64,000 nucleotides of DNA from Tequatrovirus NIC06P2. The stretch is taken from the sequence record OZ035760.1. One strand, 5' to 3'. Positions 21,561-25,823 of the stretch are shown here, piece by piece. The position numbers and the translations under genes are program-made. How positions within the stretch are numbered: the first letter of the stretch is position 1; every line of letters begins with the position of its first letter. The notes beneath the pieces were generated by a model. The model saw only the letters and a program-made list of their open reading frames with translations, did not search any database and was not told the DNA's origin.

Positions 21561-21849
21561 ATCGGTGTTTACAATGGCGACATTTATAACGAAGATTACT
21601 AGTCTGCCAATGAACTAATTGTACCTGTTCAGTACCGCATTCAGGACAATTAGGAACGTTTTTAGAAGCACGTTCGCGGCGTTCAACCATAACCATAATG
21701 GCATCCCAAGCAGGAGGTTTAAAGTCTAAATCATCACAACCATGAATCTTTCCACGCATTTCCAAATCGTCTTCTTCACCGGCCATAATAATTTTAATTA
21801 AACTGAAATTACTTGAAGCTGCAATGTCTTCTAATAGACGCTTTTTCAT
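21532..21849 (-). CDS. hypothetical zinc-ribbon protein
   Basis: CPECG...CRHCKH four-Cys motif at C-terminus. Confidence 0.5.
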
Positions 21850-22775
21850 TTCAATACCTCAATAGCATTACGTAAACCATTTGCTTTTGCATTAAGAGCT
21901 TTTAACAATTTGGTGTGTTCTGCAATTTGGGCTTCAACTTCAATCAAACGAGCATTGAGATATTCGCGTTCTTCACTCAGATTATCAACCTTTTCTACTT
22001 TAGGCTCTTTTACAACTGTCTTATATGTATTAGGGTTCTTCAGTTTAATTAGAATGCGTGAACTGTATAACATTGAACCATTATCTTCGGTTTCGTCATA
22101 CATTTCCACTACGTCCATCATCTCCACCATCGTGCAGAGTTTATAAGACAACGAACGAATAATTTTGTTGTGCTTATTAATTTCTCTAGCTGTCATGGTG
22201 CCGAGATTACGTGAGTAATAATAAGGAACCTGGATATTAATTAATACTGATGAACCACCTGGCTTGTGTGTTACTTCATCAGCAATAACCCAATCCTTAA
22301 CATGAACTGTATTTGTACGGTCATCGCCCGCGGTAAATAGTTTACGAGCATGCTTAAAAAGCATATTCACTTGGTCATTGAATTGACAAGCGAATTTATC
22401 AGCAAATTTAGTTTCGGGAATGGTAGATAACCAATCAGCCAAATGAGTCTTTTTAACATCGTTAACAATAGTAAATTCAACCAAATCGGTTATAGATGTC
22501 TCAGATTTAATGAAGCTCGGCTTCATAAAGTTTTTAATGTTATCACTAGCTACAGTAGAAGATAACAGACGAGAACGTTTAAACCATTGAAGCAAATTGC
22601 CTAACGAATGAGAATAAGCGTTTTGAGTATCTTTACAGATATGATTTTCCTGGCCAACATATTGAAGGAAATCACGAAGAATATTATTGATTACTGCCCT
22701 GTGTCCTATCTGATAATTACGATGTTTAGTAATAAGACTGTCAAAATAATCAATATAATGTTTACGAGTTTTCAT
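21846..22775 (-). CDS. hypothetical protein, member of tandem coiled-coil-tailed family
   Basis: 309 aa; shared SRLLS-type motif and C-terminal heptad tail. Confidence 0.6.
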   Translation of the reverse strand: MKTRKHYIDYFDSLITKHRNYQIGHRAVINNILRDFLQYVGQENHICKDTQNAYSHSLGNLLQWFKRSRLLSSTVASDNIKNFMKPSFIKSETSITDLVEFTIVNDVKKTHLADWLSTIPETKFADKFACQFNDQVNMLFKHARKLFTAGDDRTNTVHVKDWVIADEVTHKPGGSSVLINIQVPYYYSRNLGTMTAREINKHNKIIRSLSYKLCTMVEMMDVVEMYDETEDNGSMLYSSRILIKLKNPNTYKTVVKEPKVEKVDNLSEEREYLNARLIEVEAQIAEHTKLLKALNAKANGLRNAIEVLK

Positions 22776-22827
22776 GTTCTTCTCACTTTGTTAATGATTT
22801 GTACTCCGAGCCATCCTTGGCTTTAAA

Positions 22828-23829
22828 TTACTTAATTAACTGTAAAGCTTGTTCTAGACGATCAAGACGATTAACGGATTCTTCCCAAATCTTTTTAGCC
22901 TGCTCATATTCTTTCTGCGCTTTATTAGAAATTTCTAGAACTTCCTTATAAGCTTTTTCTAATGCAATAACTTCTGGACGAATTTCTACCGGTTCAGGTG
23001 AATCATCAAGACATTCCATTAGTTCCTCAAGGGTAGTTTCTTCTTTAGGAGTATTCACAATTTCATCACATTTTTGTTGATAAATTTCTTTATCAGTAGG
23101 TGAGTACGCGCACTTTACTTCACGAAGACTAATTACAATTTTATATCCTTCCCAACCGCATATATTCTTAAAAGGATATGTATGAATATTTTCTACTGTT
23201 TCCATACAAAGTAATGCGGTCTCTAATTGACGAGTTATAGTGCTAGCAATTGAGAAAAATTTATTAATGTTCTTTTGGTTAGCTTCTGGTGTAAAAAATC
23301 CATAATTCACAAAAATAGATACTTTATTTTTATCAAGTTCATATTCTTTTATGATAATCATATCAGAAGCCAAAGGATGAATTTGACGATAATCGCCATA
23401 ACATAATTTAGAAGCTGATTTTAGAATCTGTCCTTTGAAAAGTCTGAAATTACTAATCCAACGACGAGTAAAAATATTCTCAGGGTCTTCTTTATTATTA
23501 AGATGATAAGAATTAACATCACCGAACCAATTATATCCTACTACATCTTTGGTTCGTTTAATTTCTTTCCCAAAATTACCAAGAATATCCCGATTAACCA
23601 AATATGAAAGAAGACGAGACTCTTTAAAGGTTTTCTTGATAAGATCTTTATCTACACGACTAGAAATTTTACGAATTTCATGAATAAATTTAGTAGAAGA
23701 AACAATACCTGCATCAACACTATTGAGCCATTGATTGATAATAGAAAGAACGCTATTTTGGCCAAACATCGGTATAGCTTTATCATCAATAACGCTATTG
23801 AATGATTTGATATATTCGTTACGAGTCAT
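22828..23829 (-). CDS. hypothetical protein, member of tandem coiled-coil-tailed family
   Basis: start trimmed to MTRNEYIK downstream of promoter cassette; C-terminal heptad tail. Confidence 0.6.
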   Translation of the reverse strand: MTRNEYIKSFNSVIDDKAIPMFGQNSVLSIINQWLNSVDAGIVSSTKFIHEIRKISSRVDKDLIKKTFKESRLLSYLVNRDILGNFGKEIKRTKDVVGYNWFGDVNSYHLNNKEDPENIFTRRWISNFRLFKGQILKSASKLCYGDYRQIHPLASDMIIIKEYELDKNKVSIFVNYGFFTPEANQKNINKFFSIASTITRQLETALLCMETVENIHTYPFKNICGWEGYKIVISLREVKCAYSPTDKEIYQQKCDEIVNTPKEETTLEELMECLDDSPEPVEIRPEVIALEKAYKEVLEISNKAQKEYEQAKKIWEESVNRLDRLEQALQLIK

Positions 23830-23854
23830 ATTAATCTCCTCAGTAGAAAGTAAG

Positions 23855-23895
23855 AACATTATACCACATCCTTGTGGCAAAGTAAACTAGTTCAG
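23855..23895 (-). promoter_or_regulatory. sigma70-type early promoter cassette
   Basis: minus strand GTTTACtttgccacaaggatgTGGTATAAT. Confidence 0.5.
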
Positions 23896-24912
23896 TGCAT
23901 TTAGCGCATTGTTCAGTTTAGAACGTTGCTTTGTCAGATTTTGAACCCTTGACTGAGCTTGTTCTAACGCCTTTTCAGCTTCTAGCACTTCATTAGTTGC
24001 TTTAACGAGTTCATCATCTACTGCCTTAAGAGACTTCTCAATCGCATCTGCATGCCATTTTTCAACAGGTTTAAGACTCGGATTTTCAACAGGAAGAAAA
24101 TTCACTTTATTAAGTTTACATGCATCTATATTGCTTGAACTATGCATCCAAAATTTAGGATCGTTTGATAAGTAATTGGATAAATTTAAATTTAAGTTAT
24201 CTTGTACTTCTTGCTTTTTCTCTTGCGGGACTTCGTCCTTTCTCAAAAAATCATATTTAAATGAAACGATCATATCAAGTTCATATGATGTTGTATCTAA
24301 CTTAAATCGTTCAAAACGAGGTAAAATCTTAGATTGAACAGCAGCAACAACATCCATATACTTAAATGCTTCTGTCAGCTGTGATTTAAGACATTCACAA
24401 ATTGAAAGAGAATTTTTAGTATTAGGCTTAAAGCTAATTCGTGCAGTTCTATTATTTTCTTTTAACGGTCTTACTTCCATCTGAAGAGTATAACCATCAA
24501 ATTTCAGATTCTTTAAGTTAATATCAGAACCTTTTAATCGACTAGCAGTAGACAAAATTTGCTTTAATTGTTTACGGAATAGAGCAATAAATCTCCATTC
24601 AAGACGATAATGATTTGGATTAAAAAATCCTGTTGATAAATCGACCTTACTCTGACCAACGCCTTGAACAAATAAAGGATTTTTATAATCAATAGTTTTA
24701 CAGAAATCGGTGAGCTGCTCACGAGCAGTCATTTGAGTAATATACCCCGCTTTACTAAAATGACGTAACCATTCACTGCTATTCATATACTTAAAGTGAA
24801 TATCACGATTAACTTTATCAGGGTCTAAATTATTTTGGCACAAAAATGTCATAACATTACGGGTATAGCTGGCATTACGAACCATATCTTCAATTTGAGA
24901 ACGAGTTTTCAT
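23887..24912 (-). CDS. hypothetical protein, member of tandem coiled-coil-tailed family
   Basis: 341 aa; C-terminal heptad tail EVLEAEKALEQAQSRVQNLTKQ. Confidence 0.6.
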   Translation of the reverse strand: MKTRSQIEDMVRNASYTRNVMTFLCQNNLDPDKVNRDIHFKYMNSSEWLRHFSKAGYITQMTAREQLTDFCKTIDYKNPLFVQGVGQSKVDLSTGFFNPNHYRLEWRFIALFRKQLKQILSTASRLKGSDINLKNLKFDGYTLQMEVRPLKENNRTARISFKPNTKNSLSICECLKSQLTEAFKYMDVVAAVQSKILPRFERFKLDTTSYELDMIVSFKYDFLRKDEVPQEKKQEVQDNLNLNLSNYLSNDPKFWMHSSSNIDACKLNKVNFLPVENPSLKPVEKWHADAIEKSLKAVDDELVKATNEVLEAEKALEQAQSRVQNLTKQRSKLNNALNALN

Positions 24913-24920
24913 GGTGTTCC

Positions 24921-25823
24921 TTAAGATTTAAGTAAATCAATAATTTTAATTAATTTTTCACGTTCAGATTTAGCTTTACTACTCAATCCAGATAGTCTGA
25001 AAATTTCATCGTCATATTGTTGAATAGAAATATTCAGCTCTTCAATTTGCTTATTAAAATAATCAATTTGTTCAGAATGTTTTTCGTTACTACGAACTGG
25101 TACAGGTTTTGTAGGCAATTTAGTTGAACTGGATTCATCCGGGCGATAAATTAAAATACAACTTGAACCAATTGGACATTTTGCACCAGATGAATATTCT
25201 AATGTTCCAGCTTCTTTTAAAATTTCAAAAGCTAAACAGAGATGATGACCCATATTGGCATAATCTGTAGAGTGAGCTCTGACGTAATAATCATCTCCAC
25301 GAGTGCTAAATTTAAAGCATTTAAGGTCTTCTGTATTATTAGTTTTAAAAATCATTTGTTTATCTAGACCTTTAGCTAATCGAGCGCCTAATGCTAATAA
25401 TCGTCGTTGATTTTCCCACAAATCTGCGATCATTTGGTCAAATGATAATTTCGGCATTAGTCGACCATAAAGGTCGTATCCTTTATTATAATTGCGAAGG
25501 ATTTCACTCGCGTTAATGCGAGACAACGCTCCAATTTTATTAAGGGCTTTCATGATGCGATTAGATAAAAGCATTCCAGATCCGTTTGTTCGTTGTAAAT
25601 GTTTTTCTAATCCAAATCCAATATCAACTTTAAACTTATCTAAAATTTCGGCGTGAACATCTTTATCAATAACATTTAAATTTAGTACTGGGTTAAATTT
25701 ATGAAAAAATTTATCTGACTCGTCGCGTTGAAGTACAGTCCATTCATTTGATTTTTTATTAACTAAAGATTTAATTACTGCATTGACATTATTAATTACT
25801 ACTGACATATTTTCCTCACTCAA
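24921..25823 (-). CDS. hypothetical protein, member of tandem coiled-coil-tailed family
   Basis: 300 aa; C-terminal heptad tail. Confidence 0.6.
   Translation of the reverse strand: MSEENMSVVINNVNAVIKSLVNKKSNEWTVLQRDESDKFFHKFNPVLNLNVIDKDVHAEILDKFKVDIGFGLEKHLQRTNGSGMLLSNRIMKALNKIGALSRINASEILRNYNKGYDLYGRLMPKLSFDQMIADLWENQRRLLALGARLAKGLDKQMIFKTNNTEDLKCFKFSTRGDDYYVRAHSTDYANMGHHLCLAFEILKEAGTLEYSSGAKCPIGSSCILIYRPDESSSTKLPTKPVPVRSNEKHSEQIDYFNKQIEELNISIQQYDDEIFRLSGLSSKAKSEREKLIKIIDLLKS

Follow-up and report, generated by a model that had tools for sequence, protein, structure and literature searches.

The best described relative of the genes considered here is nrdC.5 of phage T4. It has been reported that a T4 clone minus accessory genes fails to plate both on ECOR17 and on MG1655 with the ECOR17 dsr1 gene, and that T4 nrdC.5 alone, supplied from a plasmid, restores the plating of this mutant on Dsr1 cells (Srikant, Guegler and Laub, eLife 2022; PMC9391042). 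Dsr1 is a SIR2-domain (sirtuin) defence protein, and nrdC.5 has been described as an early gene (PMC9391042). According to a 2026 preprint, the TPR sensor of Dsr1 is triggered by the phage major capsid protein (PMC12803255). In addition to nrdC.5, gp49.2 of T6 has been found to inhibit the OLD defence system (PMC13096335), and DSAD1 is presented in the DSR2 papers as a phage-encoded inhibitor of DSR2. The present text concerns nrdC.5 and the three genes that accompany it, nrdC.3, nrdC.4 and nrdC.6, in a stretch of 64,000 nucleotides from Tequatrovirus NIC06P2 (sequence record OZ035760.1), referred to below as the window. We consider it highly probable that these four genes arose by ancient tandem duplication of a single Straboviridae-specific gene; nrdC.3, nrdC.4 and nrdC.5 very likely have a common ancestor, which nrdC.6 likely shares.

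The block is the nrdC.3–nrdC.6 segment of a T4-like coliphage, and its genes are named here after their syntenic counterparts in annotated T4, T2 and slur03. A megablast search with its 3978 bp matched 653 phage records, the best at 98% DNA identity in Tequatrovirus, and nearly all of these records are named as phages of Escherichia, Shigella, Yersinia or Salmonella or bear the label Tequatrovirus. An earlier note on this DNA had described four consecutive co-oriented genes, and this is borne out, as all four lie on the minus strand. The lengths given there for nrdC.3 (309 amino acids) and nrdC.5 (341) are retained; nrdC.4 has 333 residues rather than about 334, and nrdC.6 has 295, the figure of 300 having come from an upstream TTG start. 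The intergenic gaps are 52, 57 and 8 bp, and the overlaps that had also been claimed do not occur among the four genes.

21846-22775, minus strand: nrdC.3, 309 amino acids; open reading frame matching phrog_1435 (E 1e-115), syntenic in T4, T2 and slur03; closest paralogue nrdC.4
22828-23829, minus strand: nrdC.4, 333 amino acids from ATG; matches phrog_1435 (E 9e-169); homologues carry PF26897
23887-24912, minus strand: nrdC.5, 341 amino acids; DUF7235 (PF23882, E 6e-118); its T4 orthologue is reported to act against Dsr1
24921-25808, minus strand: nrdC.6, 295 amino acids from ATG; matches phrog_2257 (E 3e-150); the most divergent member of the family

The nrdC.5 of the window is the syntenic orthologue of the anti-Dsr1 gene. 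It lies between nrdC.4 and nrdC.6 as in T4, is 94% identical to T4 NrdC.5 over 333 residues, and belongs, like the T4 protein, to DUF7235, which it matches over residues 1-341 with 394 bits (Pfam gathering cut-off 30). The T4 paper gives a phenotype only, for the T4 allele, and leaves the three paralogues unmentioned (PMC9391042). The label of unknown function given to the whole block in the earlier note has to be withdrawn for nrdC.5, whose T4 orthologue is published as overcoming Dsr1 (PMC9391042), and is kept for the other three: the literature search found no function for nrdC.3, nrdC.4 or nrdC.6, and no mechanism for nrdC.5. With regard to families, phrog_1435 matches both nrdC.3 and nrdC.4 from end to end, all nrdC.4 homologues carry PF26897 (Phage_T4_Y04OP), which is assigned via these homologues, and phrog_2257 matches nrdC.6 over residues 6-300, with 105 homologues carrying PF26899 (Phage_T4_Y05B). 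Many GenBank records label the four genes ‘thioredoxin’; family scans of nrdC.3-6 gave no match to thioredoxin or any other enzyme family, and the label looks like an artefact of the ‘nrdC.x’ names.

The diversified multigene family proposed in the earlier note is upheld by profile comparison, bridging sequences and predicted structures, and is not seen at the pairwise level, where BLASTP links only nrdC.3 and nrdC.4 (26.5% identity over 226 amino acids, E 6e-8) and gave no significant match for the other five of the six pairs. Family alignments were assembled from three database searches plus fetched loci. When compared with hhalign, nrdC.3 and nrdC.4 reached 98.3% probability, the joint nrdC.3 and nrdC.4 alignment matched nrdC.5 at 94.3% (E 1.1e-7) over 243 columns that extend to the last tail residue, and nrdC.5 matched the nrdC.6 alignment, widened with divergent bridging relatives, at 77.6% (E 1.9e-5); the direct comparison of nrdC.3/4 with nrdC.6 gave 46.7% (E 2e-4). 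The registers of these alignments are transitively consistent, residue 63 of nrdC.4 corresponding to residue 47 of nrdC.5 and residue 84 of nrdC.6, so that significant profile-profile similarity in a consistent register extends to all four genes. Furthermore, a bridging protein (P0239) scored 42 bits with the hidden Markov model (HMM) of nrdC.6 and 21.7 bits with that of nrdC.5, and the single-copy relative in PM2 was matched by both of these models. Between the copies, DNA-level repeats were absent except for the common ‘ATGAAAACTCGT’ start of nrdC.3 and nrdC.5, which indicates that the duplications are old. Recent duplication or gene conversion was considered and rejected, since DNA-level repeats between the paralogues are lacking.

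The joint MAFFT alignment has a common ‘M(K)TR’ N-terminus, absent in nrdC.6, three motifs (M1-M3) and a shared ‘..KL..A(I/L)..LK’ terminus. Two of the motifs were located as follows from the hhalign and MAFFT alignments.

22518-22586, minus strand: motif M1 of nrdC.3, WFKRSRLLSSTVASDNIKNFMKP
23563-23631, minus strand: M1 equivalent in nrdC.4
24694-24762, minus strand: M1 equivalent in nrdC.5
25479-25547, minus strand: M1 equivalent in nrdC.6
22320-22364, minus strand: motif M2 of nrdC.3, MLFKHARKLFTAGDD
23386-23430, 24517-24561 and 25359-25403, minus strand: M2 equivalents in the other three genes

A shared N-terminal motif near residues 60-75 had been proposed on the basis of four short strings, three of which prove to be homologous: SRLLSSTV of nrdC.3 (residue 68), SRLLSYLV of nrdC.4 (residue 71) and LSRINASE of nrdC.6 (residue 95) align together within M1. 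The fourth, ASRLKGSD of nrdC.5, was mis-registered. It lies at residue 123 and belongs to M2, where it aligns with ARKLFTAG, ASKLCYGD and ARLAKGLD of the other three proteins, and in nrdC.5 residues 56-67, GYITQMTAREQL, form M1. The proposed position is consequently correct for nrdC.3 and nrdC.4 only.

Predicted structures agree with this arrangement. The AlphaFold2 models of nrdC.4 (predicted local distance difference test, pLDDT, 83; predicted template modelling score, pTM, 0.69) and nrdC.6 (pLDDT 80, pTM 0.66) show an identical order of secondary structure from M1 on: a pair of helices leads into a small beta region, followed by three helices and two strands, then by a long helix and another two strands, and last by a low-confidence linker and the terminal helix or helices. 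When the nrdC.4 model was compared by Foldseek with viral predicted structures, there were 20 matches at E <= 1e-3, all the named ones from enterobacterial or Acinetobacter phages; they include JS10 NrdC.6 (E 2e-5, template modelling score, TM, ~0.4), an nrdC.3 protein (E 3e-8) and about 15 further Straboviridae proteins of 300-370 amino acids. The shared build starts with an N-terminal helical region ending in M1 and continues with a central alpha/beta domain that contains M2 and M3; a disordered linker then leads to a C-terminal amphipathic heptad helix, which, as read from the alignment, closes with the conserved ‘..KL..A(I/L)..LK’ terminus. Sequence searches of the PDB returned designed helical repeats only, or nothing, and scans of Pfam, NCBIfam and PADLOC gave no informative domain beyond domains of unknown function (DUFs). 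Weak matches to PHL, the XerD N-terminus, BrxC, SNARE and similar proteins were far under the cut-offs and fell mostly in the helical tail.

The central domain also gave a grey-zone score against tail-terminator and completion proteins (lambda gpU, T5 p142, DUF3168), a fold resemblance that is a weak lead and not a classification; the nrdC genes appear to be early-expressed and non-structural, and no match of nrdC.3-6 to tail-terminator families was found in Pfam, PHROG or PDB sequences. It could be imagined that the domain mimics the gpU-like virion fold and that the proteins serve as early decoys occupying host sensors, for which there is a precedent in sensors that read structural proteins, such as DSR2 (tail tube) and Dsr1/Avs7 (major capsid protein). 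This idea appears very improbable to us, as the resemblance was not reproduced with the nrdC.6 model, whose matches were helical hairpins only, all from the tail, as no Pfam terminator family was matched, and as the reported trigger of Dsr1 is the capsid protein and not a terminator.

The tails were examined over the last 49 residues, where the hydrophobic occupancy of heptad positions a and d was compared with that of 5000 composition-preserving shuffles, and by ranking the C-terminal heptad scores of 70 non-overlapping open reading frames of at least 100 amino acids in the window. In the four tails, 86-93% of the a/d positions are hydrophobic in a single unbroken register, a value equalled by 0-10 of the 5000 shuffles (p <= 0.002).

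21849-21995, minus strand: nrdC.3 tail, residues 261-309; a/d occupancy 0.86, equalled by 10 of 5000 shuffles
22831-22977, minus strand: nrdC.4 tail, residues 285-333; a/d occupancy 0.86, equalled by 4 of 5000 shuffles; AlphaFold2 helix at 285-332; ratio of nonsynonymous to synonymous substitution rates (dN/dS) 0.03
23890-24057, minus strand: nrdC.5 tail, residues 286-341; a/d occupancy 0.93, equalled by none of 5000 shuffles
24924-25085, minus strand: nrdC.6 tail, residues 242-295; predicted helical hairpin

Ranks 1-4 of the 70 reading frames are held by nrdC.3, nrdC.4, nrdC.5 and nrdC.6, with nrdC.5 at the top, and since these are four adjacent genes a chance origin of the pattern is very unlikely. 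The claim of C-terminal heptad segments of about 40 residues is thereby confirmed, with an a/d occupancy beyond composition and within predicted helices, as in a coiled-coil domain. AlphaFold2 predicts a terminal helix of 48 residues for nrdC.4 and a helical hairpin for nrdC.6, each behind a linker of pLDDT <50.

These ranks also bear on the possibility that the four genes are unrelated, each simply ending in a charged helical segment, and that their resemblance is due to chance or composition. Such a view could appeal to the lack of significance in five of six BLAST pairs and to the single-family HMMs, which, when run against all open reading frames of the 64-kb window, found no further paralogue and left nrdC.6 without a direct link to the others. 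It is scarcely credible all the same, being contradicted by the agreement of profile-profile comparison, bridging sequences, predicted structures and three collinear motifs, and by the tail-score ranks of genes that stand side by side. Moderately heptad-like C-terminal helices occur elsewhere in the window, in nrdC.8 (26280-26807, rank 7) and in an open reading frame at 44323-44886 (rank 5); neither matched the HMMs of the nrdC.3-6 families.

No other segment of the nrdC.3 and nrdC.4 families is as conserved as the tail, and their central domain ranks with the most variable parts; in nrdC.5 and nrdC.6, too, the tail is conserved more than the centre. Both the heptad pattern and this strong conservation would fit the tail-mediated oligomerisation suggested in the earlier note. 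The partners in such an assembly could conceivably be different paralogues, so that the conserved tails form a hetero-oligomeric coiled coil and all four proteins one multi-headed complex. The four tails do have a common heptad register counted from the C-terminus and a similar terminal motif, tail surface positions are conserved no less than core positions, and the genes are adjacent and co-oriented. However, plasmid-borne nrdC.5 alone rescued the T4 mutant (PMC9391042, where the paralogues retained by the mutant are not stated), many genera have a single copy, isolates without some members are viable, and the T4 reference nrdC.6 has no proper tail. A single complex of all four is for these reasons considered improbable. 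The T4 gene itself (NC_000866) encodes 275 amino acids, with a frameshift inside the tail at 10067-10200 of the T4 locus (window 24921-25050): past ‘...NKQIEEL’ the annotated frame reads ‘IFLFNNMMMKFSDYLD’ and then stops, and another frame still encodes ‘ISIQQYDDEIFRLSGLSSKAKSEREKLIKIVDLLKS’ up to its own stop. The cause is either a mutation of the laboratory strain or an error in old sequencing.

All relatives that could be placed belong to Straboviridae. A superfamily profile searched against 1.84 billion representative proteins gave 28 matches, comprising 27 true clusters and one false match to a repeat protein, and relatives found by tblastn come from Straboviridae of Enterobacter, Klebsiella, Cronobacter, Erwinia, Edwardsiella, Kosakonia and Pectobacterium. 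Those at ~43-49 kb, in records beginning at the conventional genome origin, occupy the syntenic slot. There is one copy in Karamvirus PG7, Mosugukvirus PM2 and Jiaodavirus KP179, three in Mosigvirus JN02 and four in Tequatrovirus, and a divergent metagenomic contig retains the order nrdC.6-like, nrdC.5-like, nrdC.4-like. A search of viral contigs for related loci with nrdC.5 and four divergent members gave close relatives only, or nothing. In the single-copy genera (PG7, PM2, KP179) the family gene is always directly upstream of nrdC.2, which encodes a small zinc-ribbon protein (window 21532-21849), and in the window nrdC.3 overlaps the downstream nrdC.2 by 4 bp (ATGA). Taken together, the constant adjacency and the overlap suggest that the family gene may be coupled to nrdC.2 translationally or functionally.

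The block is changeable in natural isolates. Among the 653 phage records, nrdC.3 falls into three allele classes, with identities of >=90% (358 records), 60-80% (~76%, 191 records) and <60% (~59%, 100 records), and the window allele is 60% identical to that of T4, with flanking genes at 88-100%. These classes, set against such similar neighbours, mark a local hot spot of allele replacement. The adjoining nrdC.2 is unusually divergent too, with a synonymous divergence (dS) of 0.74. Gene content also varies: ACG-C40 lacks all that lies between the start of nrdC.5 and the end of nrdC.3 (5805-6216 of its locus), the protein P0056, on a 167-kb contig, is an in-frame nrdC.5::nrdC.3 fusion joined at the common ‘VN’ and carries PF26897, nrdC.4 and nrdC.6 are split in T2, and nrdC.4 is split in G8. 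Furthermore, dN/dS within Tequatrovirus is 0.18-0.42 for the four genes, compared to 0.01-0.06 for nrdD, 49, nrdC and nrdC.8-10. A high dN/dS in the nrdC.6 tail was rejected as a signal of selection, being an artefact of the T4 frameshift. The deletions, fusions, splits, allele classes and raised dN/dS point to accessory, arms-race-like behaviour, and nrdC.3-nrdC.6 are non-essential accessory genes.

Transcription of the block is probably early, judging from its promoter signals.

23858-23886, minus strand: early-promoter-like site directly upstream of nrdC.4; TTTACT, a 17-nt spacer with TG, and TATAAT

In a consensus scan this site had 10 of 12 consensus matches plus the TG, and as a consensus match alone it is a candidate. 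A pattern scan of 21800-26400 found no MotA-box middle promoter inside the block, and a single early-type site without a MotA box fits the description of nrdC.5 as an early gene (PMC9391042). The start of nrdC.4 is taken as the ATG at 23829, which is preceded by a GAGGAG ribosome-binding site; the alternative reading frame from a TTG, of 350 amino acids, crosses the promoter-like site. Similarly, the ATG at 25808 is taken as the start of nrdC.6, with a GAGG ribosome-binding site and in agreement with annotated relatives, which places this gene 11 bp from nrdC.7.

The best explanation of these findings as a whole, and one that we regard as rather probable, is an early counter-defence family in which a variable head is joined by a disordered linker to a conserved coiled-coil tail. 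Given that one member is published as acting against Dsr1 and that ancestry is shared, nrdC.3, nrdC.4 and nrdC.6 become candidate immune-evasion genes. For a counter-defence role of the whole family the chances appear about even, and direct binding through the head is a more tentative proposition. The proteins would be present before the late virion proteins are made, and the more variable head would bind a host immune protein. In the case of nrdC.5 the target could be Dsr1 itself, perhaps its TPR sensor, ahead of the late trigger, the major capsid protein. The conserved tail would have a role common to the family, the simplest being homo-oligomerisation, by which the avidity for oligomeric targets would be raised, and nrdC.3, nrdC.4 and nrdC.6 might neutralise other defence proteins or other alleles.

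Several observations weigh against this explanation. The link of nrdC.6 to the other genes is based on moderate statistics (hhalign 47-78%, Foldseek TM ~0.4), and its tail is modelled in the AlphaFold2 monomer as an intramolecular hairpin and not as a single long helix. In the T4 reference, nrdC.6 is frameshifted in the tail, meaning that the tail is dispensable or the gene decaying, at least in laboratory T4. In every segment dN/dS is <1, indicating purifying selection, and positive selection is thus not demonstrated. In addition, a function is documented for one member only, in one paper and by one assay, and in the profile scans none of nrdC.3-6 matched an anti-defence or defence profile.

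Some of these points would suit another account, in which the four genes are true paralogues that encode general early host-takeover or regulatory proteins, the effect of nrdC.5 on Dsr1 being indirect or peculiar to that gene. The phenotype of a single member, the lack of similarity to known anti-defence families and the purifying selection on every segment would all be expected in that case, as would the single copy kept beside nrdC.2 in several Straboviridae genera, which is more like a housekeeping accessory than a fast-moving cassette. Against it are the natural isolates that lose, fuse or split these genes and yet stay viable, the replacement of nrdC.3 alleles, and surroundings that include documented anti-defence genes, namely nrdC.5 itself and the gene listed here.

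20321-20641, minus strand: homologue of gp49.2, matching phrog_2294 (mislabelled ‘ribonucleotide reductase’), about 1.2 kb downstream of the block

With gp49.2 and nrdC.5, at least two documented counter-defence genes lie in the interval that runs from pin to nrdC.6. We therefore judge a general takeover or regulatory role somewhat unlikely and retain the counter-defence family as the preferred explanation.

A bolder extension of the counter-defence explanation is an anti-sensor multigene family, in which a constant coiled-coil scaffold carries heads that are each directed against a different pattern-recognition sensor of the Dsr1/Avs7 TPR type. We think this quite unlikely. If it were true, paralogous inhibitors would be matched to paralogous receptors that have a sensor fold in common and carry an NADase, nuclease or kinase as effector, and the number of copies in a phage would follow the range of sensors in its hosts.

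Seeing the four genes as one family turns the isolated nrdC.5/Dsr1 observation into a testable hypothesis on three more host-range determinants, for which the modular build is suited to swaps of heads and tails. T4 is the best-studied phage, yet only one of these four genes of about 300 amino acids has a published phenotype, and nrdC.3, nrdC.4 and nrdC.6 are present in hundreds of Tequatrovirus genomes that are candidates for therapy.

Other features of the region can be noted. The block has NrdD, endonuclease VII, Pin and the NrdC thioredoxin as neighbours. In the window nrdD (17383-19200, minus strand) is an uninterrupted open reading frame of 605 amino acids; in T4 it is split by a group I intron with I-TevII. 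A homing-endonuclease-like gene (27252-27971, minus strand, 239 amino acids, phrog_314, E 2e-30) lies between nrdC.9 and nrdC.10 and has no counterpart there in T4, T2, slur03, G8 or JN02. The MotA-box-like pattern TGCTTYA-N11-13-TANNNT occurs 15 times in the whole window, compared to 2.3 expected, and 12 of the 15 are on the minus strand.

With respect to known systems, the nearest functional analogy to nrdC.5 is DSAD1 of SPbeta-like Bacillus phages, which is alike in outline, being a protein by which a phage disarms a defence NADase with a SIR2 domain; its target (DSR2) and its phage lineage differ from those of nrdC.5, and the likeness is one of analogy and not of membership. The anti-defence genes of T-even phages, such as dmd, tifA and adfA of the ‘anti-TA island’ and gp49.2, which is directed against OLD, follow the same genomic logic, being non-essential, early, placed in a variable region and decisive for host range. 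However, they are small, unrelated and single, whereas nrdC.3-6 are four paralogues of about 300 amino acids with a shared modular build. In public resources these paralogues are spread over three separate families of unknown function (PF26897, PF23882 and PF26899; PHROGs 1435, 2351 and 2257), which are united here and could be merged. The joining of nrdC.3/4, nrdC.5 and nrdC.6 in one superfamily with a common architecture is modestly new, the genes themselves being long-known T4 open reading frames. Since the role of nrdC.5 is also published, the grouping is new and the kind of system is not, and what this locus adds to the known counter-defence repertoire is a new grouping and three new candidates of a known kind.

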